Positions 1-32,011 of a stretch of DNA of 64,000 bases are shown piece by piece (position 1 is the stretch's first letter; each line of letters opens with the position of its first letter). Where the stretch lies: positions 152,202-216,201 of the forward strand of contig CAYQMM010000003.1 in NCBI GenBank assembly GCA_964418675.1, read 5' to 3'. Position numbers and translations under genes: made by a program. Source of the stretch: an uncultured Candidatus Bathyarchaeia archaeon (GTDB taxonomy: Archaea; Thermoproteota; Bathyarchaeia; Bathyarchaeales; Bathyarchaeaceae). The notes under the pieces were generated by a model that saw only the letters and a program-made list of their open reading frames with translations, did not search any database and was not told the origin of the DNA.

Positions 1-432
1 AGGCGTACTTTTCATGCGTTCAAAACCAAGATTAATAGTGAAATGCTTCCCACAACTCTTACAGTAGTAAACCTGAATGTCTCCACGTTTATTGTGCCTC
101 ACTCCATCCCTAACCAAATTTTCAGAACCACAAATTTGACAAGATTGCAGATTCGCAATAGGTTCAATTTTTACTTTCTCAACCGTTCTTCTTAGAGCAA
201 TCGAAAATTTTACAGCAAAAATGTGCTTACATTTCACTCCCCTAAATTGATGGTCTGGACACTCACAAACCCAGTTGTTATCTACTTTAGAAACGATATA
301 GCTACCATTTCCGCTTTGAGAAAGAACCCGATAAGAGAAACTGTCAACATTTCGGATGCTGTTTCGGTTATTATTAAAAATCTCTAAACCTCTTTCTTCC
401 CGAAGTTTTTGGAGTTCTTGTATGCTCATCAT
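1..432 (-). CDS. IS/transposase-like protein, N-terminal part only (SWIM-type zinc finger plus CxxC...CxxC zinc ribbon); the gene runs off the left edge
   Basis: This is my own reverse-strand translation from the ATG at 430-432: MMSIQELQKLREERG...NNWVCECPDHQFRGVKCKHIFAV...CQICGSENLVRDGVRHNKRGDIQVYYCKSCGKHFTINLGFERMKSTP. The frame is open to position 1. It is absent from the supplied track because its 3' end is cut by the window edge. Confidence 0.6.
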   Translation of the reverse strand, partial: MMSIQELQKLREERGLEIFNNNRNSIRNVDSFSYRVLSQSGNGSYIVSKVDNNWVCECPDHQFRGVKCKHIFAVKFSIALRRTVEKVKIEPIANLQSCQICGSENLVRDGVRHNKRGDIQVYYCKSCGKHFTINLGFERMKSTP

Positions 433-436
433 AGGC

Positions 437-545
437 TTTACCTACAATTTTACCTATACACTTACCTAGTATATAAACATTTAGGTAAAAAAATTAGACA
501 ACAAATAGGTAAAAAGTTTTATAAGTTACCTACAACATTACCTAC
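437..545. promoter_or_regulatory. Array of seven TTACCTA heptamers (five direct, two inverted) in the divergent intergenic region; likely an operator/iteron array, with TATA-like boxes
   Basis: TACCTA cores start at 439, 451, 463, 527 and 539, in direct orientation with 12-bp phasing. TAGGTA cores start at 482 and 506, inverted and 24 bp apart. AT boxes are tatataaa at 470-477 and ttttataa at 517-524. Confidence 0.5.
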
Positions 546-561
546 TCGTAGAGGAAATAAT

Positions 562-753
562 ATGAACGAAAAAGAGGACTTGGGGGAAACAACAACACTC
601 ACACCCGCAACCACAAAAAGTACCTCAATGAGAGCAACTGTCCCCATGAGCATAATCAAACAATTCAACCTAAAAGCAGGAGACAAACTTGGTTGGAAAC
701 TTAAAATTGAAGATGGGGAATTGGTGGTAATTGTAAGACCGATAAAAGAATGA
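562..753 (+). CDS. AbrB/MazE/SpoVT-type DNA-binding protein (63 aa)
   Basis: The C-terminal half of track ORF 409..753 reads ...SMRATVPMSIIKQFNLKAGDKLGWKLKIEDGELVVIVRPI, a typical swapped-hairpin AbrB fold signature. I moved the start to the ATG at 562 because the upstream part of the ORF is the repeat-laden promoter region. Confidence 0.7.
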   Translation: MNEKEDLGETTTLTPATTKSTSMRATVPMSIIKQFNLKAGDKLGWKLKIEDGELVVIVRPIKE

Positions 754-761
754 AAAAAAAC

Positions 762-3700
762 TTAGTCAAAATTAATTTCAGCGTTAAGATAATTTCCAAA
801 TGATGATAGTATGTTGTTTTTTACTTCATCTATTGCCTCATATTTTTTGCAGATTTCTCTTTGTTTATCAATATCATATTCTCCATCATCTTTAATGGGT
901 ATTTTCAGGATAGCTTGTTTCAATATTGACAGTGTTACTCTTTTATTCCCTTCACCGATTGCATAATCTTTGAGAGTTTTCGATAAATAGCGGTGAATAT
1001 AACCAATGTCGATTTGGTCTTCATAGTCGCCTTTTAACAATAAAACGCCACAATGAGTTGTTATGCTAAATTTTCCATTCCTATAGAAGACAGTTCCAGC
1101 ATAAATCCCATCTGTTGTCCACGTAATACATTCAGAATCATAATCGTATGTGTCAATGCACCCAATTACTCCTTCATCAGTGGTTTTAGAAGAATAAACG
1201 GGATATGATCCGCTATGAGTTCTAATGTAATTCAACGTATATTTTGCAGAGCCTTTATGACACTTGAAAAACTTTGTTATGTTTTCCTCTACAAAGTTGT
1301 CTCCAATTTCAAAATCTACAGATGCCGATTCAATTTCATCCTTAATCATTGACAATTTGCTTTTTACTTCTTCAATCTGATCTATTTTTCCAAGAAGATA
1401 TGTCTGATCGTCTAAACTGTAGTTTCCCGTATTATCAACAGGTATAGGAATTGTCAAATCCCTGATTTTGGCAACACCACATTTATTGCTATATAAAAAA
1501 CCCGATGTCAAAAATTTTCTTTCAAGTTGCCATCGCAAATAATCTAAATTCATTAATTTCCCATACTCGTTCTTAAGAAGCATCACACGATGATCATCAT
1601 TTGTAGCAAATCTGTGTTTATGTACAAAAACCCTTCCAACATGAACGCCATTTCTGTTCCAACCTATACAGTCCTCATAGTATTTTATCCCCTGAATGTT
1701 ATCTCGAATTTGACCAATTATTGAGCTTTCATGTTTTGAGCAACCATGAACAGGAACGTCTCCATCATTTTCCCTACAAAACTTTCTTGTTAATTTAGTG
1801 TTGGTTGGTGGAAATTTAAACAAATCACCGATTTTTGCCTGTTTAAACTCTATCTTTTTTTGTGTTTTTTTTAAGGTTCTTAATTTTTCAACACTTTTAG
1901 AAAATACGTCACCTGTGTCTTCAATTTTTTCTATAAATTCGTCTAGTTCCAAAACTTCTGTTTCTTCTTCTATACCAAGATCGATTTTTTCCTCTTTTGT
2001 CCACCAATTATCAATATACCAATACTCCTCTTTGTCAAATCGTTCAATTGGTTGCAGTTTGCATCTTGGATCGCCAATTTCTTTTACTGGAAAAGTGTTT
2101 GGTGAGCCTTTATACGAATTGAATAAATCCTTTGCTTTTTCTAAGTCACTTTTTCCTTCTATTTCAAATCTATAGACATTTAATTGTTCACCAATGTTAC
2201 TTACTAAATAGGTGAATACTGGGAAGTCTTGTTCTTGTTTGGGATTATTCTTTTTTGTTATTCCTAGGATGAATGTTTTTTGTGGTGTATTAAAGAATGT
2301 TTTTGATGGTAAAGATATTATACAATTAACGAAACACTGTTCTCTAATATACTTCCTCAATTCTTTATTTTGTCTAACATTCAAGATGCTGTGAGGTATT
2401 ATTACAAATGCTCTGCCATTACGCCTTAAACTTCGTATTATCCATTCTAATGCTAATCCATCTACGCCTTTGCTACCTGTAGTATAGTAAGCTTGCAATC
2501 CTTCTGTTTTTATTTCTTCTTTTATTGAGGTAACGCCACTTGTTATGTATGGAGGATTTGTTAGGATAAGATCATATTTTTCAGCTTCGTTGGTTATGAT
2601 CCTGTTTAATGTTCCCAAATTTGACTCAGTTAAGAAGTGAAAAATACGATTAAAAAGTGCAGAGAACTCTTTCGTGATGTTTGGATACTTCTCTACAATA
2701 TCTGATAGGTAAATGAGAAGATTAGCTTTAGCAAGTATTATAAGACGTTCCTCATCACTGTCCGAACCTTTATCATAACCCTCGTAGGTTATTGTGGGTT
2801 CTATTTTCCCGTTTTTAGGAATAAAATCTTGCTTCCTAATGGGCTTTTGTATTGTTTCTGCTATGAAGCCACCTACACCACAAAAAGGATCGCATACCCG
2901 TGAACCCTCTGGGAGTTTCTCAACATCAGCCATATCTACAATGGCTCGAACAACTTTTCTAGGTGTGAAAAATTGTCCTAATCTACTCTTATCTGAGCTT
3001 TCTTTAAGAAATGTTTCAAAAAGCTTTGTCTTAAACTCTTTCTTGATATGCCTAAGTGTTGTAAAATTATCATATTTTTTTAGTGTACTTTTGAAAAGAT
3101 TGGCTTGGCTGAAGACAGGGTTACCACTTGCATCTACAAAAATAGTACCATTTATGATGGTTGTTTTATCTTTTCCTTCTGGGAATAGTTCTCTTATTTT
3201 CTTGCGTGTATTTATAGCGTAGTAATTAAGCACATCTTTGTTCTTGACTTTTTGAGCATACATACCATATACAGTTTTGAAGTCATTTGGAACTTTGAGA
3301 ACTTCAAGATCGCTAAGGAATTTAAAGATAAACAGTTCAACAACATTGTACAAGCATTTTTCAGGTTCTTTTCCAGTGTTGATATAAATGTCTTGCCATA
3401 CACCTTTAGCTAAACTTAGCGGATCGACGGTTTCAGTGGGGATTAGTGTAGAATTTTTCTCATTTACTGCCGATAATATTCTATCTACATAATCCAATGT
3501 ATTTTTTGTTGTCTCCGCTAACTTGTCAAAAATAGGCTCGGAAACATCTTGGATTACAAAAGGTTCACTTAAATCTTTTTTATCCTCATTCCTAATGATC
3601 GAATAACTACGTTCAACATTGTACTTGTCTCTGTATGTGTTATTCTTGTTTGATTGTCTTGGGTTTATCCAGATGAATAGTTGTCCATCGGTAATTACGC

Positions 3701-4010
3701 CCATTTTTGAATTTAGAACTTGACAAACATCGTTACATTGTTCTATAGCGCTTTTCTTTTGGGCATCAGTCCTAAACTCTGATGGTTGCTTATATTCTAC
3801 TACAGCGATTACGGTAATGTTTTCTTTGTTTTGCCTATTGACAAGTAAGCCGTCTGGTTTTCGTTGGGAATATCTGCCGTAATCAACATTGGGAATAATT
3901 CGATAATTTTTATACTGATTGAGCGTAGTGTCTTGGGTAGGAAAATATTCAAGATGTCCAATTTTGACACCCGCTTCCGTAAAACCCTTACTTATTAATT
4001 CTTCGCTCAT
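762..4010 (-). CDS. Single-polypeptide restriction-modification enzyme (Type IIB/IIG-like RMS fusion): N-terminal PD-(D/E)xK nuclease, gamma-class N6-adenine methyltransferase, and a C-terminal two-TRD specificity region
   Basis: The 1082-aa ORF carries PDGLL...VVEYK (nuclease), QFFTPRKV (motif X), DPFCGVGGF (motif I, AdoMet binding) and TNPPY (motif IV). About 460 aa at the C-terminus form two similar HsdS-like halves. Confidence 0.8.
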   Translation of the reverse strand: MSEELISKGFTEAGVKIGHLEYFPTQDTTLNQYKNYRIIPNVDYGRYSQRKPDGLLVNRQNKENITVIAVVEYKQPSEFRTDAQKKSAIEQCNDVCQVLNSKMGVITDGQLFIWINPRQSNKNNTYRDKYNVERSYSIIRNEDKKDLSEPFVIQDVSEPIFDKLAETTKNTLDYVDRILSAVNEKNSTLIPTETVDPLSLAKGVWQDIYINTGKEPEKCLYNVVELFIFKFLSDLEVLKVPNDFKTVYGMYAQKVKNKDVLNYYAINTRKKIRELFPEGKDKTTIINGTIFVDASGNPVFSQANLFKSTLKKYDNFTTLRHIKKEFKTKLFETFLKESSDKSRLGQFFTPRKVVRAIVDMADVEKLPEGSRVCDPFCGVGGFIAETIQKPIRKQDFIPKNGKIEPTITYEGYDKGSDSDEERLIILAKANLLIYLSDIVEKYPNITKEFSALFNRIFHFLTESNLGTLNRIITNEAEKYDLILTNPPYITSGVTSIKEEIKTEGLQAYYTTGSKGVDGLALEWIIRSLRRNGRAFVIIPHSILNVRQNKELRKYIREQCFVNCIISLPSKTFFNTPQKTFILGITKKNNPKQEQDFPVFTYLVSNIGEQLNVYRFEIEGKSDLEKAKDLFNSYKGSPNTFPVKEIGDPRCKLQPIERFDKEEYWYIDNWWTKEEKIDLGIEEETEVLELDEFIEKIEDTGDVFSKSVEKLRTLKKTQKKIEFKQAKIGDLFKFPPTNTKLTRKFCRENDGDVPVHGCSKHESSIIGQIRDNIQGIKYYEDCIGWNRNGVHVGRVFVHKHRFATNDDHRVMLLKNEYGKLMNLDYLRWQLERKFLTSGFLYSNKCGVAKIRDLTIPIPVDNTGNYSLDDQTYLLGKIDQIEEVKSKLSMIKDEIESASVDFEIGDNFVEENITKFFKCHKGSAKYTLNYIRTHSGSYPVYSSKTTDEGVIGCIDTYDYDSECITWTTDGIYAGTVFYRNGKFSITTHCGVLLLKGDYEDQIDIGYIHRYLSKTLKDYAIGEGNKRVTLSILKQAILKIPIKDDGEYDIDKQREICKKYEAIDEVKNNILSSFGNYLNAEINFD

Positions 4011-4618: not shown

Positions 4619-5704
4619 CTACCTAGTTATCTCTATCTTCAACATCTTTTCCAGCGTCTCTGGATGTTCACGGAAATGCTCTCTGACAGGCTTCAGTATA
4701 TCGACCAAGGCTTCGGCGACGCCGTTCTTCAGGTCAAGAGGATGCATTTTGCCTTGGGCGTAGACATCTGCTAACTGCTTGAAGCTTTCGAAGGTTTCTG
4801 GACCGCCATATTTGGCTGGTCGCGGTATTTCCAAAAGCTCTCTTTCACCAAAGATTACGAGCCTCGCCAATTCGAGGATGGGATTCGCCTTCACCACTTT
4901 AGGGGGACAGTAAGCATCCCTTATTTTAGCTCTGATTTCTTTGGGAGTGTCATGAACTAGTATGCTGCTTTGGGGTATGCTCTTGGACATTTTGGAGCTA
5001 ATCTCCACGTTCAGGTCTGCATTTTCGTCAAACTTCTGCTCTGTGCTCTGGGGTCCCTGAAGCCCAATCAAAAGGGGAGTGTGGACGGTGGAAGGCTTTT
5101 TCCATCTGAGCTTTTCTGCTGCGTCTCTCGCTAGCATATGGGCTTTTCTCTGGTCTATACCTGAACAGGCTACATCTAGGTTCATCTGGAAGATGTCTGC
5201 CGCTTGCATGCACGGATAGAAAATCCACGCTGTCTCCATGTCTGTCATGCTGGTTTCGCGACCCATAACGGGAAGGGCGCGCCATGTTCTCTTCACTGAG
5301 ACGCTTTTGGCTATGCGGATGACCTTTTCCCAGTATTCAACTTTGTCTGTTATGTCTGATGCCCAACGGAATTCAACCTTGTCGGGTGTTAAGCCTAGGG
5401 CTGTGAAGATTTGCTTCAGGTATTCTCCACAGGTGCGGATGTTCTCCATGTCTCCGCCTAGCTTGTTGTTTATCCATGAGTGCCAGTCGGCTAGGAAGAT
5501 GGTGAAGTCGAAGCCAGCGTTGACCATATCCTTGATTTTTGCGGAGCAGACCAAACCTATGCCTATATGCAATAGTCCAGAACATTCGAAGCCCCAGTAG
5601 GCTCGGGGATTAGCCTCTGTCTCCAGTAGCGTCTGGATTTCCTGGGGAGTAATAACCTCCGCCGTGTTCCTCATGACAAGGTCTATTCTTTCTTGCAAGT
5701 CCAA
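4619..5704 (-). CDS. tyrS: Tyrosyl-tRNA synthetase (archaeal type)
   Basis: The sequence is collinear with my recollection of M. jannaschii TyrRS: GFECSGLLHIG (HIGH region), FLADWHS, YPCMQAADI, QRKAHMLARD, KMSKS, IRAKIRDAYCPP and MHPLDLKNGVAEALV. Confidence 0.93.
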   Translation of the reverse strand: MDLQERIDLVMRNTAEVITPQEIQTLLETEANPRAYWGFECSGLLHIGIGLVCSAKIKDMVNAGFDFTIFLADWHSWINNKLGGDMENIRTCGEYLKQIFTALGLTPDKVEFRWASDITDKVEYWEKVIRIAKSVSVKRTWRALPVMGRETSMTDMETAWIFYPCMQAADIFQMNLDVACSGIDQRKAHMLARDAAEKLRWKKPSTVHTPLLIGLQGPQSTEQKFDENADLNVEISSKMSKSIPQSSILVHDTPKEIRAKIRDAYCPPKVVKANPILELARLVIFGERELLEIPRPAKYGGPETFESFKQLADVYAQGKMHPLDLKNGVAEALVDILKPVREHFREHPETLEKMLKIEITR

Positions 5705-5759
5705 GTATAGCGCCCTCGTTATCCTCTCATCTTATTCTACAAACTTAAAAGTTCTTATC

Positions 5760-5978
5760 GCGGGCGTTGTGTCCCACGTAACTAACTCTCACCCTCACAG
5801 TTGGAGCTAAGCGCTCTTCTCAGATGAGCTCTCTCAAACGTGGGTTGATTTGCCCGCGCCCACCGTGTCCCATGCCTGGGTAAACCCTCCGTCAACGGTA
5901 GATGAAAGTCACCATCCTCTGTCGGGTCCGTCTGCATGAGCCCATTAAGGTGCCGGCGGGATTATGCTCCAGCCCACC
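5760..5978. ncRNA. Unclassified structured-RNA candidate (or structured tyrS leader) between pheT and tyrS
   Basis: The 347-bp gap has no credible ORF and is visibly richer in G+C than its flanks. A long hairpin spans 5760-5857 (GCGGGC/GCCCGC plus CCCACGT 5773-5779 / ACGTGGG 5838-5844). A second domain is closed by CATGC 5871-5875 / GCATG 5934-5938 and contains three small hairpins. I could not fit SRP, RNase P or tRNA consensus motifs, and the strand is undetermined. Confidence 0.35.
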
Positions 5979-6051
5979 TATCATCGCAAAACAATAGTAC
6001 ACAGGCAAGAACATAAAACTTTTCCATTCACGAAAGATGAGCAGCATTTGA

Positions 6052-7728
6052 CTATATGATTTTTTGCAGGTCGATTTCGAAGGCGCTTGTCGGATTCTCC
6101 AGTTCAAAGTTGTTCAGGACTTCCGGGTGAATCTCTCCGACAACACCAAGTTCTTTGCCTTTGATGTAAACAGCGGCTACTCTCCCCTCTAAGAAGCTCG
6201 GATGCTTAGCTTCTTTCACTGTCCAGTTTTTCAAGCTAAGGTTCATCAACAAGGCTTCCAAGTAAGATTTCATCTCTGTGAAGTTTGCGGTTGGATGAGA
6301 GGAGACTCCAGCGGCATGCAGTCGCCGTTCTGTGCGAGTCTCAGCTTTCTTGTCGATTCTTATCACGTCAGAGACCTCAAACATCCGCTGAGGAAAAACT
6401 TGATGCTTATTGTCCGCCAGATTCCTCATCAAGCTAGGCAACAGGTCATTTCTTATTATGGAATACTCCGTGGAAACCGGGTTCGCCAACCTAACCAATC
6501 CCTCAGTTTTTCTTCTCATTTTCTGGTAGTGGTCCTCTTCGTTGGCGAGAATGAAGTTCAGGGCTTCCACGAATCCCAGCCCCACCATTATCTGCCGCAC
6601 ATCCTTCGCCACCTCACTCACCCGATGCTCCTTGCCCGTTGTCACAGTCGCCGGCTTCGAGGGCTTCAACCTAAAATATCCATAGCCGATTGCAACCTCT
6701 TCAACCAAGTCAATCTCATGCAGTATGTCGATTCGGTAGGCGGGAATCGTAACTTCCAAAACTCCTTTCTCAGCTTTTTTTGCGTCAAGTCTGGATTTAC
6801 GAAGAGCCTCCACAGTTTTTGCGGCTGAAAGCCTGAGACCCAGCAGCTCGTTAGCATAATCCACCTTCAGTTTCATCTTCTGGGGCGTCAAGTCGGGTGT
6901 AACCAAGTTGTGGTCGGGATACTTGATGGCTACGCTTTCTATGGTGCCTCCCATATCTGATAGAGCTGTGACTAGGACGTTTAGGCTTCTTGAGATGGCG
7001 TTAAGTTCGGTGCCAGTGATGTCGATGAAGAGATTCCGTGTATTTTCGTCCACCCGGGTCAGCTCGCCATTAATTATAGGTGGGAAAGAGAGAACTCTCC
7101 TCTGCTTGTCCACTATTAACGGGTATCTTGGAGCCCAATCCACTTCACTTTTGTATGCCACGCCCTTCTCATGCTTCTCCAGAATCTCCTGCGGCGTCAT
7201 CTCTTCCGTCTTATCTAAGGGAACAAACTTGATTTCGTTGGGGGCGCATGTTATATAGGAGAATGGGGGTTCAACGGCATTCAGGTTGTGCACTCCGATG
7301 GAAGCCTTTTTTCTGTCTCTGCCCACCATCCAGTGAAGGTCCTCCTGCATGTCTATGAGCTCCCGAAGGGCGGCAAGGTCAATCTTCAAGTCTCGAACTG
7401 CAGCAGCCACAACGTACGGGCGGACATTAGCCACACTTTTGTCAACGCTTAGAACGATGTTTCCCTCTTCCACATCATATTTAGGCAAGCCTGTCTCCCA
7501 GCCCATGAGCCCCCGAAAGGCTCTCGCCACTCCCCCGTAACTGGAAAAGTCCACACGATTCGGGTTATACTCAATCTTCACATAATCCGAACCAATCTCT
7601 TCGGTGTCAGTTCCCAGCCATGGAAGCCACTTAGCCATCTCTTCCACGCTTAAATCTCGCCCAACAAAAGTGGAGAAGCGCTCTCGCTCCAAGGTTATCG
7701 TTGGCACACCGGGGTCCTCCTTATCCAA
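6052..7728 (-). CDS. pheT: Phenylalanyl-tRNA synthetase beta subunit (archaeal)
   Basis: The 558-aa ORF lies directly downstream of pheS and has archaeal PheT length and B3/4-B5 style sequence. The annotated start overlaps the pheS stop by 34 nt, so a slightly internal start (GTG at 7707) is possible. Confidence 0.88.
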   Translation of the reverse strand: MDKEDPGVPTITLERERFSTFVGRDLSVEEMAKWLPWLGTDTEEIGSDYVKIEYNPNRVDFSSYGGVARAFRGLMGWETGLPKYDVEEGNIVLSVDKSVANVRPYVVAAAVRDLKIDLAALRELIDMQEDLHWMVGRDRKKASIGVHNLNAVEPPFSYITCAPNEIKFVPLDKTEEMTPQEILEKHEKGVAYKSEVDWAPRYPLIVDKQRRVLSFPPIINGELTRVDENTRNLFIDITGTELNAISRSLNVLVTALSDMGGTIESVAIKYPDHNLVTPDLTPQKMKLKVDYANELLGLRLSAAKTVEALRKSRLDAKKAEKGVLEVTIPAYRIDILHEIDLVEEVAIGYGYFRLKPSKPATVTTGKEHRVSEVAKDVRQIMVGLGFVEALNFILANEEDHYQKMRRKTEGLVRLANPVSTEYSIIRNDLLPSLMRNLADNKHQVFPQRMFEVSDVIRIDKKAETRTERRLHAAGVSSHPTANFTEMKSYLEALLMNLSLKNWTVKEAKHPSFLEGRVAAVYIKGKELGVVGEIHPEVLNNFELENPTSAFEIDLQKII

Positions 7729-9200
7729 CCTAAATCATTCTTGTATAGCAGCCGAATATCCTCGATGCCGAGCTTAAGAAGAATCAGGCGTTCCAAGCCT
7801 CCCCCCCAAGCCAACACCGGATGTTTGATGCCGAGGGGAGCCAACACTTCAGGACGGAAGATGCCCATTCCGCAGAGTTCCACCCAAGTTTTAAGTTCTG
7901 GAACGTAGACCGTGGACTGCATGGAAGGCTCTGTATAGGGGAAGTAGCTGGGCCAGAACTGCACCTTTTTCAGTCCAAGTTTCAGGTAGAATTCTTTGAG
8001 GGTTCCCATGAGGTCTCGCAGGGTCACCTTCCGGTCCATTATTATTCCTTCGATTTGATGGAATTCTGCGAGGTGTTTGTAGTCCACTTTCTCGTTGCGG
8101 TATACCCTGTCCACCGAGAAGACTTTGACGGGTGGTTCTTTATGTTCGGACAAGTAACGGATGGTTGTAGCCGTTGTGTGGGTTCTCAGCAGCAACCGCT
8201 TAGCCTCTTCGGGACTCCAACTGTATTCCCAGCCTCTGGAGCCTGTTTTCCAGCCATCCTCATGGGTCTTAGAAACAGCTTCAACAACCTCTCTTTCAGG
8301 TAGTGTTCCCTTATTTGGTTGTGCTAGGTAGAAGGTGTCCACCATATCTCTGGCAGGGTGGTCTTGCGGTTGGAAGAGTGCATCAAAGTTCCAGAAGGCA
8401 GTTTGAACTATGGAGCCACGAATCTCAGTGAAGCCCATCTCCAAAAAGATTTCTCGGACTCTCTGAATTATCTGCTGGGCAGGATGAATCTTCCCTGGAT
8501 AAACTGGAGGTCCAGGAGCCTTCACGTTGAAACGTCTAAGCTTCACTTTCCTCCATCCTCCACTTCTGATGAGTTCGGTGGTTAGTTGGCTGACCTCTCC
8601 AGAAACTTCAATTCCCTTCTTAACTAGACTCCAGCCTTCATCAGTCAACTCTAATTCTCTCAGAGCCTTCTCCTCAATTTCCGCGAGCCTCCGCCGCTTC
8701 AGAACAGAAACAGCCTTCTGCAGTTCTCTGTTAAGCTCCTCAACTGTCAGGGATTTCTTTTCGGCTAGGAGACGCAGAAGTTTTTCATCCTCTCCCAGAG
8801 GCGGTTCCCTCAAAGATTTCAGTTTGCCTTGCTTGATGGTTGCCCAGCCCTTACGATTAAGCCACCCCAAGGCGACTGATAGAAACTTTTTCTCTAAGCC
8901 TGCTTCTTCAACAACATAATTAACTGGGGCTTCGCCGCCAAGCTTGATTAACGCGTTCTGTAAACGTCGTTCGGGAAGACCCTCTTCTGAATGTTGGGTT
9001 CCCTCTTCAGTTAATGAAATCAATGATTGCTTTTTTTCATGTGTTACTAGGAGTTTCTTTTCTGAGAGGGAGAGGGCAGCCCGCATAACTGCCGCGTCAG
9101 CTAATCCGCTGATTTGCACTATCTGGTCGACAGGGGCTCTTCCTTTCAGCTTTTCTAGGGCAAGCAAGGTTTTCTGTTCATTCTCTCGAAGTTCAGCCAC
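7695..9200 (-). CDS. pheS: Phenylalanyl-tRNA synthetase alpha subunit
   Basis: The 501-aa ORF has class II motifs in its C-terminal catalytic half (FQPQDHPARD, RTHTT, GMGIFRPEVL, AWGGGLERL) and N-terminal winged-helix repeats. Confidence 0.92.
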   Translation of the reverse strand: MAELRENEQKTLLALEKLKGRAPVDQIVQISGLADAAVMRAALSLSEKKLLVTHEKKQSLISLTEEGTQHSEEGLPERRLQNALIKLGGEAPVNYVVEEAGLEKKFLSVALGWLNRKGWATIKQGKLKSLREPPLGEDEKLLRLLAEKKSLTVEELNRELQKAVSVLKRRRLAEIEEKALRELELTDEGWSLVKKGIEVSGEVSQLTTELIRSGGWRKVKLRRFNVKAPGPPVYPGKIHPAQQIIQRVREIFLEMGFTEIRGSIVQTAFWNFDALFQPQDHPARDMVDTFYLAQPNKGTLPEREVVEAVSKTHEDGWKTGSRGWEYSWSPEEAKRLLLRTHTTATTIRYLSEHKEPPVKVFSVDRVYRNEKVDYKHLAEFHQIEGIIMDRKVTLRDLMGTLKEFYLKLGLKKVQFWPSYFPYTEPSMQSTVYVPELKTWVELCGMGIFRPEVLAPLGIKHPVLAWGGGLERLILLKLGIEDIRLLYKNDLGWIRRTPVCQR

Positions 9201-9306
9201 TGACTATTCCTCCGTGACACTCAGGTTGCAACCTGTAATGGTGAACTTGGTTTAGCTTTATGACAAGAAGGCTTTAAAGGTTTCAACGTCAGTGATGGCT
9301 TTAGTT

Positions 9307-10419
9307 CTAGTTAACGCCTAATATTTCTCTTGCTTTGTCAACCTGTTTCGTTCGTCTTTTCTGATGGTCCTCAATGAATTTCAGAACTATCTCTTTTGTG
9401 CAAGCCTTGTGTTCCCCACATAAGAGCTTTCCACATTTGCAGTCGTTGTACACTTTCACCATGTAGTCGTCGTCATCAACGAAGTGGCACATCTCAATCT
9501 CGTAAATGGGACAGATTTCAGGCACTCCACCCAGCTTTCTCTGCTCCTCCACAGTGGCTCTTCCGCCCGTAAAGGCACTAGATATCTTCTTGGCTATGGT
9601 TTTGGGGCTCTCGTTCAGGGTAAAGTAGCTCATGGGATTCCGCTTAGACATTTTCGGAGAACCATCCAAGCCCTTCAGAATCTTGTGGTAAGTGGAGGAT
9701 GGAGGGATGAACTTGAATTTGCGGCGGAACTTGTTGGCTAGGTCTCTGGTTAAACGGAGGTGGGCGTCTTGGTCTACTCCTACGGGAACCACTGTTGGTT
9801 TGGGTCCCCCGAAATCTTTGAGTTGAGGCATAAGGATGTCTCCCGCCTGCACAAGGGCTGAGAGATAGAGTCCGATGTGCCGTTCTCCGTAGATGGCTTT
9901 CATCGTGGCTAAGGTCACGCCAGCCCCGAAATGAACTGCTAAGTCTCTGACTCGCAGCTCCTTATACTGCCTGTAAATGTGACCGTTTTTAGGGTCAAAG
10001 CCTAACGCTAACAGGTCTGCGACATTGCCGACAGCGATTTTCTCGGTCTTCTCGAAGGGCAGTCTGTTGTCTTCGTAGGCTTCGATGTCTGCGATGGCGT
10101 AGAAGGCTTTGGCTCCCTGCTGCTGGAAATAGATGATTTCCCGCGCGGTCATGAGGGTTCCTAGATGGAATTCGCCTGTGGGTTTGATGCCGCTCATCAC
10201 CGCAAAGTCTCCGCCCTGCTTCATCGTTTCTAGGACGCGGTCGAAGTCTCTGTGTCCGAAGATGACGCCTCGCCGCATATACATGCTGGGGTTCGGTATC
10301 TCTGGCAGAAGGGGCTTAAACTTTTGTATGCCGAATTCATCGTAGAGGTGGTCGTAGTCCTCAACCACCGTTGCTCCCCAAGGGTCAAGCACGGATTTTT
10401 TATCCTTAACATTAGCCAA
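9307..10419 (-). CDS. trpS: Tryptophanyl-tRNA synthetase (archaeal/eukaryotic type) with a Cys-rich C-terminal segment
   Basis: Motifs are DPWG..., GIKPTGEFHLGTLM (HIGH-like), VGVDQDAHLRLTRD and KMSKR (KMSKS-like). Six Cys residues fall between residues 303 and 340. Confidence 0.88.
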   Translation of the reverse strand: MANVKDKKSVLDPWGATVVEDYDHLYDEFGIQKFKPLLPEIPNPSMYMRRGVIFGHRDFDRVLETMKQGGDFAVMSGIKPTGEFHLGTLMTAREIIYFQQQGAKAFYAIADIEAYEDNRLPFEKTEKIAVGNVADLLALGFDPKNGHIYRQYKELRVRDLAVHFGAGVTLATMKAIYGERHIGLYLSALVQAGDILMPQLKDFGGPKPTVVPVGVDQDAHLRLTRDLANKFRRKFKFIPPSSTYHKILKGLDGSPKMSKRNPMSYFTLNESPKTIAKKISSAFTGGRATVEEQRKLGGVPEICPIYEIEMCHFVDDDDYMVKVYNDCKCGKLLCGEHKACTKEIVLKFIEDHQKRRTKQVDKAREILGVN

Positions 10420-14155: not shown

Positions 14156-14280
14156 GGGGTTGCCAGCTTTCCCGGGTTCACGTGGCCGAAGACCACACTA
14201 GCACCAGGAACGGAGCGTGGTTTAACTTCTGAGTTCGGAATGGGATCAGGTGGGTCCCACGCCCTATGGCCGGCAACCCC
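14156..14280 (-). rRNA. rrf: 5S ribosomal RNA (stand-alone)
   Basis: The reverse strand reads GGGGUUGCCGGCCAUAGGGCGUGGGACCCACCUGAUCCCAUUCCGAACUCAGAAGUUAAACCACGCUCC...CCCGGGAAAGCUGGCAACCCC. The termini are complementary and the conserved CCGAAC...GAAGUUAA core is present. Confidence 0.92.
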
Positions 14281-15264: not shown

Positions 15265-16416
15265 CTATAAGATCAGGTGATTTGATGCTTCCATTTCTTC
15301 TATGTTGGTTTTTGTCAAAGTTTTTATTTTGCTTAGTTCTGCGATTTCTCCGTAGCCCACGAGGGTTATAGCGGTTCCTTCGCCTCCCATTCTGGCGGTT
15401 CTTCCGATTCTATGGAAATAAACCAGTGCATCCAAGGGGACATCATAGTTTATTATATGGGTTATTCCCTGGATGTCCAAACCTCTTGCAGCAACATCGG
15501 TTGCAACAAGCATTTTTAGTTTTCCTTTTCTGAACGAGTTGCTAACGCGGTCTCTTTGTGCTTGAGTGAAGCCAGCATGTAATGATTGTGCGTCGTATCC
15601 GTTTGCGTTTAGCTTGTTTGCTAGCCAATCTGTTCCTCTGCGGGTGTTACAGAATATAATGGCTTTTCCAATGTTATTATGCTTCATTATATCGAGTAAA
15701 TACTCAAATTTGTTCCAATGATTTACCACTGCATAGTACTGGTTCAGCTGTGTAAGAGCTATCTCGTCTTTGCTTACAAGTATCTTTTCAGGGTTCTTCA
15801 TGTATCTGTGGCACACACTCATCACTGATTCATCAATGGTTGCCGAGAAGAGGCTTAACTGCCTCTTTGCCGGCACTCTTGAGAGTATGTAGTCAATGTC
15901 ATCTATGAATCCCATGTCAAGCATCCTGTCAGCTTCGTCAAGAACAACAATATTCGTTGATGACAGATTCAATGTTCCTCGTCTCAGATGGTCTATTACA
16001 CGACCCGGCGTACCAACAACAATATGGACGCCTCTCCTCAGTTCACTGATTTGTTTTTGGATCGGTTCTCCGCCGTAAACGGCTAGAACCTTCAGCATTG
16101 TATATCTGCTGAATCGGCGTATGCGCTGGGCAACCTGTATGGCGAGTTCACGTGTTGGCGCTAAAACTAAGCCTTGAACCCCCTTGATTTTTGGGTTTAC
16201 GCGTTCAACCATAGGAATTCCGAAAGCCGCAGTTTTGCCGGTTCCGGTTTGTGCTTGCCCAATGACATCCTTTCCTTCAAGTAATGGGATTATTGCTTGA
16301 GCTTGAATTGGAAAAAGATTGCTGAATCCAAGCTCCTCTATCCCTTTCATGACTTCTGGACATAAGGGCAAGTCTTCGAAGTTTTCTATTTGCATATTTA
16401 TTATTCCTCCTGTCAC
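15265..16416 (-). CDS. DEAD-box ATP-dependent RNA helicase
   Basis: Motifs are AQTGTGKT, PTRELA, VLDEADRMLDMGF, SAT and HRIGRTAR. The real start is probably MQIENFEDL, eight codons in. Confidence 0.92.
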   Translation of the reverse strand: MTGGIINMQIENFEDLPLCPEVMKGIEELGFSNLFPIQAQAIIPLLEGKDVIGQAQTGTGKTAAFGIPMVERVNPKIKGVQGLVLAPTRELAIQVAQRIRRFSRYTMLKVLAVYGGEPIQKQISELRRGVHIVVGTPGRVIDHLRRGTLNLSSTNIVVLDEADRMLDMGFIDDIDYILSRVPAKRQLSLFSATIDESVMSVCHRYMKNPEKILVSKDEIALTQLNQYYAVVNHWNKFEYLLDIMKHNNIGKAIIFCNTRRGTDWLANKLNANGYDAQSLHAGFTQAQRDRVSNSFRKGKLKMLVATDVAARGLDIQGITHIINYDVPLDALVYFHRIGRTARMGGEGTAITLVGYGEIAELSKIKTLTKTNIEEMEASNHLIL

Positions 16417-16598
16417 AAAATTTTTTGCACGCAGTCTTCAAAAGCCTTCAAAAGCCTCGAGTTAAGCATGAATGATTAATGTGACGATAACAGCCAACAT
16501 GTATCCCCCATATAAAAAGGTTTACCCTGTACACAAGCCAACACTAAATTAAGTACACCAGATAAAATTTGTCAAAAGCAAAAAGTAATGGGAGTTTT

Positions 16599-16752
16599 TG
16601 GTCGGGCGGGCGGGATTTGAACCTGCGACAGTCCGGTTTCTGTACGCTTGATAGGCTGGGTGATGCCCACCACCGGGTAGGCGTCTACAGCGTCTCCGTC
16701 AGCTTGGAAGTCAAGCTGGCTCGGAAGCTCTACCAAGCTGAGCTACCGCCCG
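16599..16752 (-). tRNA. tRNA-Tyr(GUA) with two insertions in the anticodon arm (30 nt at 31/32 and 47 nt at the canonical 37/38 position); CCA is encoded
   Basis: The reverse strand reads CGGGCGG-UA-GCUC-AGCUUGGUA-GAGC-U-UCCGA-[30 nt, genome 16691-16720]-CUGUAG-[47 nt, 16638-16684]-A-CCGGA-CUGUC-GCAGG-UUCAAAU-CCCGC-CCGCCCG-A-CCA. C1:G72 plus A73 is the archaeal Tyr identity set. The anticodon GUA is at 16686-16688. Confidence 0.75.
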
Positions 16753-16864
16753 ACCAAGTGTAACCAACATGAAATTCCAATTTATGCGTTTCGTTACGCT
16801 CAGTTAATGTTTTTTGGGAGATGATAAAAAAATGGGGGAGACTCGAATTTCAAAAAGAAAGATG

Positions 16865-17074
16865 CTAACCGTTTAGCTCTTTGATGTGTTCTTCTACAGC
16901 AGTGAGTTCTTTCTTTAGTTCTTCTGCATAGTTCTTCAGTTTCTCGGTTTTTTCCGCTTTGGTCAAAAGGCGCTTACCATAACCATGCTCTCTGCAGTTG
17001 CAGGGTGGGACGCAAATGCATTCTATGCACATGTTTTTCTTCACCTCCAGTTCTATGCAATGATTAATATCCAA
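16865..17074 (-). CDS. Small Cys-rich protein with a C-terminal coiled coil
   Basis: MCIECICVPPCNCREHGYG is followed by KLKNYAEELKKELTAVEEHIKEL. The gene is divergent from the HxlR gene. Confidence 0.4.
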   Translation of the reverse strand: MDINHCIELEVKKNMCIECICVPPCNCREHGYGKRLLTKAEKTEKLKNYAEELKKELTAVEEHIKELNG

Positions 17075-20582: not shown

Positions 20583-20671
20583 GGGCCGGTAGTTCAGTCT
20601 GGTATGAATGCCGCCTTCGCAAGCACAGCAGAAAGAGGCGGAGGTCGCGGGTTCAAATCCCGCCCGGTCCA
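20583..20671 (+). tRNA. tRNA-Ala(CGC) with a 14-nt canonical intron
   Basis: GGGCCGG-UA-GUUC-AGUCUGGUAU-GAAU-G-CCGCC-UUCGCA-[AGCACAGCAGAAAG]-A-GGCGG-AGGUC-GCGGG-UUCAAAU-CCCGC-CCGGUCC-A. The G3:U70 alanine identity pair is present and CCA is not encoded. Confidence 0.9.
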
Positions 20672-20918
20672 CTTTGGAATGCTCTCTGTTTATCTGTGTG
20701 TTTTTTGAGAAAAAGCCTGTTTTCAACAATACGCTGTGATTAGGCTCCAAATATGTTTGTTATTTCTGCTTAATTTCTTGTTTACTGGAACTCTTGTAGC
20801 CATAATAGGTGGAAATAAAGGTGGAATATTGACGAAATTGGTGATAAATACGAAAAGGTTTTTAGTTCCGTTCTATAACAACACAGACAAAACGTAGTTC
20901 ATATATGAGGTGAAATGA

Positions 20919-29261: not shown

Positions 29262-30079
29262 GCGTCTTCGAAGGCTTCAAATTCAGGAAAGTCTCTTCTG
29301 CCATCCACAGGCTGGACCCAAGAATCAAATTTTTCTACGTTATCGTCTTGTTTGTGATGGCGATTCTATTCACCAAGCTGCTGGCACTGATTGTCCTATT
29401 CTTCGTACCCTTGCCCTTCGTTTTTATGGCAAGAGTCAAACGAGAATGGCTGCGTTCCCTGAGAGGAGCCGCATTCTTAGCTATCTTCATCTTCGCAACA
29501 AACTTCATCTTCGGATACTTCTATCCAACATCATTCACGGAAATAACTCCCCCCGTTGACACAATCGGAGAGATTCTTGTTCTTTTGGAGCGAGCCTCAG
29601 CCATGACTCTACGTTTCGTCGTTCTAATTGCATCCTTCTCCGTATTCTTTCTAACAACTTCGCCTGACCATCTAGGCTTGGCGCTACAGCAGAGTCACAT
29701 TCCCTACGAGTTTTGTTTTGCCTTCACAACTGCGGTTCGTTTTGTCCCTGTCTTGGCTGACGAGGCGCAGACCATCATGGATGCTCAGAAGGCTAGAGGA
29801 TTGGAGTTGGAGCGTGGAAACTTTCTTAAACGGGTGAGAAACTACATTCCCATCCTCATTCCGCTGATTGTTAATGCCATCAGAAGAAGCTTGGAGTTGG
29901 CGGAGGCTATGGAGTCTCGGGCTTGGGGTGCCAGCGAAAAACGCACAAACCTCTACGTGCTCAAACTTAAACGGGCAGATTACCTCCTCGTCCTGCTTTC
30001 TGTTCTGATGCTGATCATTGCTGTTTACGTCTGGCTATACGTCCCCATTCCCACATTAACAACACTTCTTAACCTCTAA
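29258..30079 (+). CDS. ecfT: ECF transporter transmembrane component T (CbiQ family)
   Basis: This 273-aa polytopic membrane protein follows the two ATPases and carries the conserved ARG...E region (MDAQKARGLELE). Confidence 0.85.
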   Translation: MSVFEGFKFRKVSSAIHRLDPRIKFFYVIVLFVMAILFTKLLALIVLFFVPLPFVFMARVKREWLRSLRGAAFLAIFIFATNFIFGYFYPTSFTEITPPVDTIGEILVLLERASAMTLRFVVLIASFSVFFLTTSPDHLGLALQQSHIPYEFCFAFTTAVRFVPVLADEAQTIMDAQKARGLELERGNFLKRVRNYIPILIPLIVNAIRRSLELAEAMESRAWGASEKRTNLYVLKLKRADYLLVLLSVLMLIIAVYVWLYVPIPTLTTLLNL

Positions 30080-30196
30080 ACCCTCTCCAAAGCTAATTTA
30101 CACTGCAAACAGAATGTTACACTCAAAAAACATGTTTAATCCCCAGATTTGAACGGCAGCTCAAATCAACAATATCTAACGGAAGTTTCCTTCGGA

Positions 30197-30292
30197 TTAT
30201 TTGGTCTTCTTTCTTCGTCTCTGCCTCTTCTTCTTAACCCGCTTCTGTTTCTTCTTAGCGGTCTTTTTTGTCATGCCGTGATGTCTTGCCAT
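30197..30292 (-). CDS. Possible 31-aa extremely basic peptide
   Basis: My own translation is MARHHGMTKKTAKKKQKRVKKKRQRRRKKTK. It is below the track threshold, has no homology support, and is reminiscent only in composition of L41e-type peptides. Confidence 0.25.
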   Translation of the reverse strand: MARHHGMTKKTAKKKQKRVKKKRQRRRKKTK

Positions 30293-30385
30293 TCTAGTCC
30301 AGTTTCCTTCCACATTAGTCTAAAGTGTGATTCTTAAAGTTTTACGTTACCATCCTTGCGGCGATTATTAAAGCTTATTTCACCC

Positions 30386-30453
30386 GGTTCTGTAAAGTCT
30401 TCGGTTGATGGCATGTTTTGAGAGGGCTGTAAAAAATCGGTTGATAGAACTTT
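30386..30453. repeat. Left terminal inverted repeat (68 bp) with an internal CGGTTGAT duplication
   Basis: ggttctgtaaagtcttcggttgatggcatgttttgagagggctgtaaaaaatcggttgatagaacttt. Confidence 0.9.
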
Positions 30454-30535
30454 GCAGTGGACATGCTACGAAGAGCCTCTATACCTTTCTAATCGGTTTT
30501 ATATAGCGAGTAATGAAAGCATTTAACGGTTTAAA

Positions 30536-31021
30536 ATGTCTGAAGATGAATCCACAAAAGAAATGCTCAGTAAAATAGCTTCAAAAGTATCTACATTTGC
30601 AATTGGAAACTATATTCAACCTATACATAGCTTGAAGGACAGCTTAGAGAATCATGATTGGTTTAAGGGGTTAATTCTGTCTACGACTTTCTTAGAGATG
30701 TTTGGATTCTTGAGCTTAAGAACATATTATGAGCAAAACGTAGACCGTGAACACCATAAAAAAATCGGAGAATTCCTTTATCGTTCTGGACTAGCACGGA
30801 TAATAACGTTATTGTATTTCTCGGGTTTAATAAAACGTGATAGCTATACCAAAATGATTGAAATTAACAAAGCAAGAAATGAAATAGTTCATCGTGTACG
30901 AAGAATAAAAAAAGATGAATTTGCTTTTGACGATGAGATAGATATTAAATTTGAGAGAAAAGCAAAAAAACTGATTAAGCAGACAATCATATGCCTCAAA
31001 GAATTGGGAGTATCTCACTAG
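30536..31021 (+). CDS. HEPN-motif protein (predicted RNase-type toxin/effector), cargo of the TIR element
   Basis: The 161-aa ORF looks all-helical and carries an R-x4-H motif with the typical Asn after Arg (KARNEIVHR, R114...H119) in the C-terminal third. This is motif-level evidence only. Confidence 0.5.
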   Translation: MSEDESTKEMLSKIASKVSTFAIGNYIQPIHSLKDSLENHDWFKGLILSTTFLEMFGFLSLRTYYEQNVDREHHKKIGEFLYRSGLARIITLLYFSGLIKRDSYTKMIEINKARNEIVHRVRRIKKDEFAFDDEIDIKFERKAKKLIKQTIICLKELGVSH

Positions 31022-31131
31022 ATGAACTAGACCATATAATTCCACATTCAAAAGGAGGAAAAACCGAACTTCAAAATGCACAAATTACCCATAAATCCTG
31101 CAATGCCCAAAAATCCAAAAAGACACCATAG
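30991..31131 (+). pseudogene. HNH (His-Me finger) nuclease core remnant or mini-ORF overlapping the end of the HEPN gene
   Basis: My own translation in the other frame is MPQRIGSISLDELDHIIPHSKGGKTELQNAQITHKSCNAQKSKKTP, showing the DH...N...H..CN pattern. The N-terminal CxxC half of a normal HNH domain is missing. A 1-nt frameshift within 30979-31018 would fuse it to the HEPN ORF. Confidence 0.45.
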
Positions 31132-31218
31132 ACTCTTCGTGAAAATGGCAACAAAAGGCAACTCTACAGTATCTTCATCCACATCTTTTTATGTCCAATC
31201 CTGAATAAAGATAGATTT

Positions 31219-31713
31219 ATGGCATCAGACGAACAAAACAAATCTCTATTGGTACAATACCGAGAATGTTGGGCAGAGATTAGAAATTTAGATACTTTAA
31301 TTTGGCAAATTCCTTCAATAGCCATGGCAATTAATTCTTTTTTTGGGATTGCCTATCTCGGTTATGCAAAAACCCCTGAGGCAAGAATGATACTATTGTT
31401 TGCATCATTCGCATTCAATTTTGTTTCCATTATTACACTAAGAAAGCACCGTTTCCTTCAGATTGCTCGCACAGAGGATTTGATATGGGTTCAAGAAAGA
31501 TTGAGACAAACCGTAAAAATACGGAATATAAAATGGCAAACAGCACTGATTCTTTCAGATACAGAACAATATCGTGATGTCCCGAGAGACGGAATGATAG
31601 GCATTTCAGCATATCGATGGTTACTCGCTGTACTATGTTTAACATTAATTGTTATTACTACCGTACTAATGGTTGAAATACTTACTTTCTATTTTACATT
31701 TATTCTAAACTAA
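31219..31713 (+). CDS. Multi-pass membrane protein, cargo of the TIR element
   Basis: The 164-aa ORF has hydrophobic segments IPSIAMAINSFFGIAYLGY, MILLFASFAFNFVSIITL and WLLAVLCLTLIVITTVLMVEILTFYFTFIL. Its stop codon lies 2 nt inside IR-R. Confidence 0.55.
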   Translation: MASDEQNKSLLVQYRECWAEIRNLDTLIWQIPSIAMAINSFFGIAYLGYAKTPEARMILLFASFAFNFVSIITLRKHRFLQIARTEDLIWVQERLRQTVKIRNIKWQTALILSDTEQYRDVPRDGMIGISAYRWLLAVLCLTLIVITTVLMVEILTFYFTFILN

Positions 31714-31779
31714 AGTTCTATCAACCGATTTTTTACAGCCCTCTCAAAACATGCCATCAACCGAAGACTTTACAGAACC
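31712..31779. repeat. Right terminal inverted repeat (68 bp)
   Basis: It is the exact reverse complement of 30386-30453. Confidence 0.9.
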
Positions 31780-32011
31780 TTTCACCCAATGAAGCAGCTG
31801 AATAAACTTGTTCCCTGTTTCGAGAACATCCCTCAGAAGATTCAGTTATTTTTGTTGTCATCTGCCTTGATTAAGCGTCCAGTGTTTCGTGAGGCTGTTT
31901 CAGAGTCGCTCCATTTCATCATCACGTTAAAGCTCAGAGCGGTGTCCCTCATCACACAATAAACGTCTTACATGAAAGTTTAAAACCTTATCCTCAGGTT
32001 CCGATGCTCAG

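Follow-up and report, generated by a model that had tools for sequence, protein, structure and literature searches.

Multiple introns in the tRNA-Tyr gene of Bathyarchaeia and two mutually exclusive folds of its precursor

Results

A tRNA-Tyr(GUA) gene with two insertions in the anticodon arm

We analyzed a 64,000-nt stretch of contig CAYQMM010000003.1 from an uncultured Bathyarchaeia archaeon (positions 152,202 to 216,201; hereafter the window), in which the minus strand from 16599 to 16752 carries a tRNA-Tyr(GUA) gene with insertions of 30 nt and 47 nt in its anticodon arm. Read along that strand, exon 1 (16722-16752, tRNA nucleotides 1-30, assigned from the sequence and the Rfam alignment) consists of the acceptor strand CGGGCGG, UA, a D arm reading GCUC-AGCUUGGUA-GAGC, U26, and UCCG. 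After the 30-nt insertion comes exon 2 (16685-16691), GCUGUAG, that is, G31 C32 U33 G34 U35 A36 G37, with the anticodon GUA at 16686-16688, called as gta by ARAGORN. Beyond the 47-nt insertion, exon 3 (16599-16637; sequence, Rfam, and ARAGORN) runs through A38, CCGGA, the variable loop CUGUC, a T arm GCAGG-UUCAAAU-CCCGC in which A51 (16624) faces C63 (16612), the acceptor strand CCGCCCG, A73, and CCA. The identity set recognized by archaeal tyrosyl-tRNA synthetases, as known from the M. jannaschii system, is C1:G72 plus A73; the window has these bases at 16752 (C), 16603 (G), and 16602 (A).

The Rfam tRNA model RF00005 covers 16602-16752 at 38.5 bits, above its gathering score of 29 (E = 1.2e-6 in a local search), with model positions 1-71 all aligned and an 86-nt insert in the anticodon loop region, where 9 nt are expected. 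In default mode ARAGORN missed the tRNA-Tyr gene at 16599-16752, and with introns allowed it miscalled the full precursor as Asp(atc) with one 66-nt intron. Given the sequence spliced in silico, it returned tRNA-Tyr(gta) of 77 nt, a product that folds as a cloverleaf with GUA in a 7-nt loop on a 5-bp stem, UCCGG/CCGGA. An earlier note, made from the sequence alone, had described a tRNA-Tyr with two anticodon-arm insertions of these lengths, these exon sequences, and an identity set with C1:G72 and A73, and had proposed checking its isotype with a covariance model. Sequence, Rfam, and ARAGORN bear out this description, with a model score above threshold and a spliced call of Tyr, and add the encoded CCA.

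Upstream of the gene, a BRE-like (B recognition element) motif, CGAAA, lies at 16789-16793 on the minus strand (-41 to -37 from tRNA nucleotide 1), followed by a TATA box, ATAAATT, at 16779-16785 (-33 to -27). Both emerge from a comparison of 108 upstream regions of related genes. The BRE profile has A at -39 in 79 of the 108 and at -38 in 91, the window reading ACGAAACGCATAAATT, as does its closest relative (L114); the TATA box is conserved, with an A/T content of 0.79-0.94 at -33 to -29, and most relatives have CATAAAT. On the other side, a T-rich run, UUUUUGCUUUU, at 16574-16584 (minus strand), 15 nt downstream of CCA and read from the window sequence only, is likely an archaeal terminator.

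Orthologous genes carry one to four introns

A pattern scan with the 5′ exon, covering one genome per Genome Taxonomy Database (GTDB) species, returned 120 loci, nearly all from Bathyarchaeia metagenome-assembled genomes (MAGs), with a few bacterial tRNAs of 77-78 nt among them. From this genome scan we parsed 98 tRNA-Tyr genes as the comparative set, using the exon 2 segment as a fixed anchor, such that invariance there is not a result; a gapless alignment of 80 distinct genes (alignment A1) was used for covariation. Metagenomes were scanned separately with a pattern that fixed the anticodon, the intron core described below, and the T arm and left the D arm free. Together, the scans recovered this gene architecture from about 100 genomes of Bathyarchaeia and from 120 contigs of metagenomes, and the earlier suggestion of a genuine multi-intron pre-tRNA is borne out.

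Among the 98 genes, 61 have the two introns of the window, at positions 30/31 and 37/38, and 13 have the 37/38 intron only. Seven carry introns at 30/31, 37/38, and 59/60, one at 30/31, 37/38, and 53/54, and one at 37/38, 53/54, and 59/60, while 15 have all four. No intron-less tRNA-Tyr with these exons occurs among the 120 genome loci, and every Bathyarchaeia match has at least one intron. Across the 98 species, exons are 97.8% identical, a value taken from 48 mature positions outside the search pattern and slightly overestimated since parsing constrained some of them; identity is 61.7% in intron 1 (30/31) and 70.0% in intron 2 (37/38). CCA is encoded in 90 of the 98 genes.

The four-intron genes, all on Bathyarchaeia genome contigs (L004, L005, L007, L011, L033, L035, L045, L057, L059, L077, L089, L106, L111, L113, and L116), span 207-233 nt and all give tRNA-Tyr(gta) on in-silico splicing. 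In these relatives the central helix of the 59/60 intron is UUCA/UGAA and that of the 53/54 intron CGCA/GGCG, with three of four pairs formed. The published maximum is three introns per archaeal tRNA (2014 review, PMC4033280; 2021 tRNAscan-SE 2.0 paper, PMC8450103), which these genes exceed.

Three further observations concern the same gene family. In nearly all genes, the introns at each of the four positions have A as their first base and, at their 3′ end, a 4-nt helix strand followed by A-N, a shared architecture hinting that they have one origin or suit one preference of the endonuclease. A tRNA-Tyr relative on metagenome contig Ga0209080_1000285 (L200, upstream of 2674) has a different acceptor stem, CCCGCGG, and a further insertion of about 50 nt within the D loop after GCUCAG, which would be a fifth intron position in the family. 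Finally, two MAGs, JAWCNE01 (L008, L066) and JAOAJJ01 (L016, L053), each contain two different two-intron tRNA-Tyr genes, which are either real paralogues or the product of mixed bins.

Intron 1 lies at position 30/31 within a bulge-helix-bulge

Intron 1 (16692-16721, minus strand, 30 nt) reads A, a hairpin named h′1 (16698-16720), GGAG, and AC. Thirteen related genes lack it and read GAGCUUCCG|GCUGUAG, ending UUCCG|GCUGUAG; because they have this junction, the intron is AGCC...GAGAC between G30 and G31. The sequence of these relatives is reproduced by the 30/31 placement alone, which yields a perfect 5-bp anticodon stem in which G31 pairs with C39. The earlier placement of the intron at 31/32 (16691-16720) was one base off, and the A31:C39 opposition reported with it is an artefact of this mis-registration. 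The 7-bp hairpin CAGCUUG/CAAGCUG noted in the same insertion reads as described.

At 30/31 the intron sits in a bulge-helix-bulge (BHB) in which a 4-bp central helix, H1, joins C25-U26-U27-C28 (CUUC, 16724-16727) to GGAG (16694-16697), with every cell paired (100%). It is flanked by the 3-nt bulges CG|A and AC|G, the latter made of AC and G31; the intron hairpin serves as inner helix, and the cut in each bulge follows its second base, just as for the 37/38 intron. Because this BHB has canonical geometry, no bases are left over and no editing is needed. A register pairing UCCG with CGGA, drawn in the earlier note, was rejected: it leaves 3 extra nucleotides, it is broken by the GAAG variants described below, and the C/U that precedes GGAG covaries with the second intron nucleotide (i2). 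The extra processing or editing step that had been considered is unnecessary for the anticodon stem, the cuts of the 3-4-3 BHB giving the exact mature sequence.

The conservation of intron 1 follows this register. All 83 introns (82 distinct sequences) begin with A, and the intron strand of H1 is GGAG in 75, GAAG in 7, and GGGG in 1, each followed by A-N. All pair with CUUC, and the pairing of the GAAG and GGGG variants is retained in the CUUC register only. The base before GGAG (i-7) is paired with i2 in 82 of 82 cases (G:C 67, A:U 13, G·U 2); because it covaries with the second intron nucleotide, it belongs to the hairpin and not to G30. In alignment A1, H1 is 100% paired and eight of the nine h′1 pairs show compensatory changes. 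The helices of intron 1 have 94.6% of their cells paired, against 23-55% when the partners are slid by 1-3 columns, and their covariation score was reached by none of 500 shuffles.

Intron 2 occupies the canonical position 37/38

Intron 2 (16638-16684, minus strand, 47 nt) lies at the canonical 37/38 position. The minimum free energy (MFE) structure computed by RNAfold for the isolated anticodon arm combines the 5-bp stem, a bulge AA|A38, a helix CUGU/ACAG (H2), a bulge A36-G37|A, and a closing helix (A)CGC/GCG(U), and is the very BHB that the earlier note had drawn. In the 80 aligned genes the H2 strand is made of the four bases before the terminal A-N, which always pair with C32-U35 (100% paired; U35:A in 37, U35·G in 43), and the anticodon stem is likewise 100% paired. 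Both window introns thus have two 3-nt bulges on opposite strands, a 4-bp helix between them, and a cut after the second base of each bulge; removing both restores a standard tRNA, and the junction predicted for intron 1 is the one seen in the 13 genes that naturally lack it.

The inner helix differs among genes. We rejected (A)CGC/GCG(U) as a general inner helix of intron 2: it holds in the window but lacks general support in relatives, the MFE folds (98 genes) pointing elsewhere, as does the covariation of another hairpin, P2′, which forms the 5′ end of the intron (ACGCCUACC-CGGU-GGUGGGCAU, 16663-16684, minus strand). In about 85% of genes P2′ begins with the first nucleotide of the intron and has 8-9 bp, with covarying ends (e.g., ACG..CGU, GCG..CGC, AUG..CAU); G37 has C or U opposite it in 86 of 97 genes. 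Measured against the strict hBHBh′ motif, h of intron 2 is the anticodon stem, and h′ is in most relatives this local hairpin, with about 20 unpaired nucleotides opposite. For intron 1, h′ has nine covarying pairs, and h is either a 2-bp helix (A23-G24/C32-U33) or the helix S2 described in the next section.

In 63 relatives (e.g., L073, L030, L085, L109, L051), insertions of 3-16 nt separate an internal ACA from the terminal RCRG-AA of intron 2. These are often small hairpins, and most end in GCA, recreating the H2 strand.

A conserved core of intron 2 pairs with the exons in a competing fold

The 98 introns 2 share a core, CAGC-CUAYCAAGC-RY-ACA. In the window (minus strand), its 9-nt segment, CUAUCAAGC (16646-16654), is complementary to the D-loop segment G15-G22, GCUUGGUAG (16730-16738), forming a helix named S1, and CAGC (16655-16658) is complementary to G31-G34 (16688-16691), forming S2. 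The ACA (16641-16643), 2 nt past the S1 strand, is in the window also part of H2 (ACAG, 16640-16643).

S1 has nine of nine pairs in 97 of the 98 genes, and 720 of 720 cells are paired in alignment A1. Position 17 covaries (U17:A 61, C17:G 18, U17·G 1), with about 7 switches on a tree built from the introns against 17.7 when the tips are shuffled; five other pairs vary through G·U only. The metagenome genes add compensatory A15:U, and C20:G in 11. Against a perfect helix stands C20·A in 16 metagenome genes, which makes S1 imperfect in places. The S2 strand is CAGC in 87 and UAGC in 5 of the 98 genes, with 96% of cells paired in alignment A1, and in 96 of 97 genes U35 would be faced by a pyrimidine. 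NN-ACA is found in 97 of the 98 genes and keeps its place also in the 63 genes with 3-16 variable nucleotides before the terminal H2 strand. ACA lies 15 nt from the start of S2 (the first guide-like base) in 92 genes and 14 nt from it in 5.

Two explanations of the ACA in terms of the BHB were tried. As an alternative H2 strand it does not hold, since the base after ACA is G in just a part of the 63 longer genes and cannot pair with C32 in the others. It is also unlikely to be the relic of an older H2, as the two bases preceding it and those following vary freely and ACA does not.

Two folds of the precursor anticodon region are therefore conserved, and each excludes the other. In the one with S1 and S2, a single uninterrupted strand of the intron carries both helices, of 9 and 4 bp, stacked on each other, and the only bases left free ahead of P2′ (which starts at G37) are U35 and A36. 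This fold is compatible with the BHB of intron 1 and not with that of intron 2.

A51·C63 is a recurrent state

The earlier note had reported two A:C oppositions in the stems. A31:C39 is absent, as shown above, and A51·C63 is real. Positions 51/63 are A:U in 79, A·C in 17, C:G in 1, and U:G in 1 of the 98 genome genes, and A:U in 87, A·C in 13, C:G in 5, and U:G in 3 of 108 metagenome genes; G51:C63 was never seen in either set. On an approximate tree built from the introns, A·C turns up in scattered places, with about 12 changes; together with the absence of G51:C63, this suggests that A51 is constrained and that U or C at 63 is nearly neutral. A51·C63 is thus a recurrent, lineage-tolerated state and not a sign of decay. 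It is probably an A+·C wobble, and editing is not required. The window shares it with L006, L020, L024, L026, L042, L068, L077, L085, L089, L090, L095, L100, L108, L110, L114, and L118.

Genomic context

Directly downstream of tRNA-Tyr lies a DEAD-box helicase gene (15265-16416, minus strand), whose product is about 90% identical to a Candidatus Bathyarchaeum protein and whose listed GTG start is 7 codons too long. No tRNA lies beside the helicase in the contigs of three relatives, and because these helicase-bearing contigs have no adjacent tRNA, the position of tRNA-Tyr is not conserved. No gene for the splicing endonuclease EndA or the ligase RtcB was found among the 48 of 62 window open reading frames (ORFs) scanned against Pfam.

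About 11 kb from tRNA-Tyr, a cluster of aromatic aminoacyl-tRNA synthetase genes occupies 4619-10419 on the minus strand, with tyrS at 4619-5704, pheT at 6052-7728, pheS at 7695-9200, and trpS at 9307-10419. The presence of tyrS in the window, which the earlier note had pointed out, is confirmed by a match to NF006330 at 427 bits. A lone 5S rRNA gene (14158-14277, minus strand, 76.9 bits) lies 2.3 kb from tRNA-Tyr, 16S and 23S being absent from the window. At 20583-20672 (plus strand), a gene that ARAGORN labels Arg(cct) by default is actually tRNA-Ala(CGC), with G3:U70 and a 14-nt intron at 37/38; ARAGORN calls Ala(cgc) both with introns allowed and on the spliced sequence. Two stretches stand out by their low GC content. 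The first, 1-4010 (0.34, against about 0.46 elsewhere), holds a fusion of an N6-DNA-methylase with a specificity domain (1082 aa; 762-4010, minus strand), probably a horizontally acquired restriction-modification gene; the second, 30000-32000 (0.37), holds two ORFs, 30536-31021 and 31219-31713, for which no Pfam match was found.

Discussion

A functional gene with two introns

We assign a probability of about 0.9 to the reading that the locus is a functional Bathyarchaeia tRNA-Tyr(GUA) gene, which, judging from its sequence and that of its relatives, would be transcribed from its own BRE/TATA promoter into a precursor of 154 nt from which proteins would splice two introns. Intron 1 would be displayed in a BHB made partly of exon, with C25-C28 and GGAG as the 4-bp central helix, cut sites in the 3-nt bulges C29-G30|A and A-C|G31, and A23-G24/C32-U33 as a possible outer helix. 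Intron 2 would adopt the standard arrangement of anticodon stem, bulge AA|A38, CUGU/ACAG, and bulge A36-G37|A. Cleavage by the splicing endonuclease and ligation, enzymes whose involvement we infer along with the order of splicing, would then give a 77-nt tRNA with a perfect UCCGG/CCGGA stem and A51·C63 as its sole irregular pair.

Several points weigh against this reading. The local MFE fold takes the register UUCCG/CGGAG and not the intron-1 BHB, and the MFE fold of the whole precursor (-63.8 kcal/mol) contains S1 and S2 and again not this BHB. A fold constrained to S1, S2, and the intron-1 BHB reaches -59.4 kcal/mol, and the cloverleaf with the intron-2 BHB -48.3 kcal/mol. For the intron-1 BHB to form, one D-stem pair (G10:C25) and two anticodon-stem pairs (27:43 and 28:42) must open, and this BHB has an outer helix of 2 bp only; moreover, H1 and the anticodon stem are invariant in their exon columns, which makes their support partly one-sided. 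Finally, our view of the source genome spans 64 kb, and a second tRNA-Tyr gene could sit elsewhere.

That last point, together with the single non-Watson-Crick pair A51·C63 and the failure of ARAGORN in default mode, could be taken to mean that the locus is a decaying copy, a pseudogene in which insertions and mismatches are damage, as the earlier note had envisaged. We consider this very improbable: the two-intron architecture recurs in 61 of 98 species-level genomes, every Bathyarchaeia match is interrupted at least once, exons have stayed 97.8% identical where introns have diverged to 62-70%, intron helices keep their pairing through compensatory changes, BRE and TATA are conserved, and A51·C63 itself recurs in 17 species and 13 metagenome genes. 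Scarcely any weight remains either for an intron 1 at 31/32, in which A31 would face C39 and the stem would be repaired by trimming or editing (e.g., A-to-I or C-to-U). In a single sequence that placement is ambiguous unless the stem is assumed to be paired, as the intron starts with A and the base before C32 is G; relatives without intron 1 have G at 31, however, and the one register that fits both the GAAG variants and the i2:i-7 pair puts the canonical cuts at G30|A and C|G31.

A gene of a known kind in Bathyarchaeia

Multi-intron pre-tRNAs of Thermoproteales were reportedly described by Sugahara et al. in 2008. The Bathyarchaeia tRNA-Tyr gene is a member of this kind, known from Thermoproteales and Korarchaeota: with at least two BHB introns, at least one of them non-canonical, as its mark, the window has introns at 30/31 and 37/38, and relatives add 53/54 and 59/60. 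Like the tRNA precursors with multiple introns from Thermoproteales and other TACK archaea (reviews PMC4033280 and PMC8450103), the gene contains several short introns, one at 37/38 and the others non-canonical, that have BHBs built partly from exon and would be removed by the protein splicing endonuclease; neighbouring introns need alternative folds of the precursor. Different are the host, Bathyarchaeia, and the occurrence of 1, 2, 3, or 4 introns in an orthologous gene. A search of one literature library found no description of tRNA introns in Bathyarchaeia/Bathyarchaeota.

The hBHBh′ motif of the canonical archaeal 37/38 intron is attributed to Marck and Grosjean (2003). Intron 2 resembles this class in its 5-bp anticodon stem, its 3-nt bulges, its 4-bp helix from nucleotides 32-35, and its cut positions. 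It differs in having a conserved 18-nt core whose pairing with the D loop and with G31-G34 is incompatible with the BHB, and in that the inner helix is the local hairpin P2′ in most Bathyarchaeia relatives.

What the core of intron 2 may do

The two conserved folds of the anticodon region are an observation, their role an inference. The reading that we favour, at clearly less than an even chance, is the hypothesis that intron 2 carries a cis-acting H/ACA-like module that would place U35 for pseudouridylation before splicing. CUAYCAAGC and the tRNA's own D loop would form a 9-bp "lower stem," CAGC would act as the 3′ guide on G31-G34, and the P2′ hairpin would stand in for the 5′ guide duplex on G37 and the start of the intron. 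The invariant ACA would anchor the PUA domain of Cbf5, and U35, the sole unpaired uridine at the junction, 14-15 nt from ACA, would be converted to pseudouridine 35 before splicing. The observed distances of 14 and 15 nt fall within the 14-16 nt that separate ACA from the target-facing position in H/ACA guides, and the target U and the next base would be unpaired between two duplexes, S2 ending at G34 while G37 and intron nucleotides i1-i9 lie in P2′ in about 85% of genes. Several features argue against placing the module in the H/ACA class: the lower stem is formed with the D loop and not within the intron, two unpaired nucleotides (RY) precede ACA, and the upper stem with its kink-turn (K-turn) is absent, a linker of about 3 nt joining the guide-like strands. 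No tandem G·A or K-turn motif was seen by eye in the 98 introns, and an Rfam search of 16400-16950 at E ≤ 1 gave no H/ACA family, its only matches being tRNA and a chance hit to CRISPR-DR33.

The core might instead be a folding device only, giving the precursor a shape unlike that of a tRNA that either supplies an outer helix for the intron-1 BHB or sets the order of splicing, with no part in modification; intron 1 would leave first, and refolding would then expose the BHB of intron 2. We give this main alternative about the same chance as the cis-guide. RNAfold predicts the S1/S2 fold as the MFE, and this fold can coexist with the intron-1 BHB (at the -59.4 kcal/mol given above) but not with that of intron 2; S1 covaries, and stepwise removal of neighbouring introns is known (PMC8450103; C. 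merolae, PMC3728597). Yet the 13 genes without intron 1 keep all nine S1 pairs and CAGC, and a device of this sort leaves unexplained both the invariant ACA 2 nt from S1 in the 63 genes where ACA lies outside the BHB helix and the pyrimidine that would face U35.

The closest likeness to the proposed module is found in the Sso1/sR115 guides of Sulfolobales and Aeropyrum (PMC2651775, PMC11077068). In Sulfolobales, H/ACA guides make pseudouridine 35 on intron-containing pre-tRNA-Tyr, with 14 nt from target to ACA; in the guide complex U35 and A36 are unpaired, the 3′ guide lies on the anticodon stem-loop, and the 5′ guide on the intron (PMC2651775). Deletion of sR115 abolishes the modification in vivo, and Cbf5 can modify uridines in RNAs to which it binds without a separate guide (PMC11077068). 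The target (U35), the substrate (an intron-containing pre-tRNA-Tyr of TACK archaea), the 3′ guide pairing just 5′ of U35 with U35 and A36 left free, the second duplex on G37 and the first intron nucleotides, and the distance to ACA (14 nt published, 14-15 nt here) are the same. In contrast, the guide-like strands of Bathyarchaeia lie in cis, inside an intron of the same molecule, the lower stem uses the D loop, 2 nt from ACA, and the linker of about 3 nt replaces the upper stem and K-turn. The putative module moreover has no Rfam H/ACA match.

A precedent for a modification guide borne by an intron and acting on its own exons before splicing is the box C/D guide inside the tRNA-Trp intron, reportedly described in Haloferax and other Euryarchaeota (Clouet-d'Orval 2001, Singh 2004). 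That guide belongs to a different class, 2′-O-methylation, with C/D boxes and the proteins L7Ae, Nop5, and fibrillarin. No C/D boxes were seen by eye in the 98 introns, of which no systematic scan was made.

Significance for Bathyarchaeia and for tRNA-Tyr introns

These genes matter for annotation, since default tRNA finders miss or mislabel tRNA-Tyr and a Bathyarchaeia genome then seems to lack it; in the same window, the intron-bearing tRNA-Ala(CGC) is mislabelled tRNA-Arg. One to four introns in one orthologous gene across a single class also form a natural series for the study of intron gain and loss. The gene itself is of a known kind, and what sets Bathyarchaeia tRNA-Tyr apart is the conserved exon-pairing core of its canonical intron. 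Pseudouridine 35 is typical of tRNA-Tyr, and why the tRNA-Tyr intron is so widely retained is an old question. A pairing between the 37/38 intron and the D loop that covaries, together with an ACA at H/ACA distance, offers a testable answer to intron retention and its coupling to pseudouridine 35. If the cis-guide proposal is true, this would be the first H/ACA-type modification guide built into a tRNA intron, a counterpart of the tRNA-Trp box C/D guide, and it would give a selective reason for the retention of intron 2.

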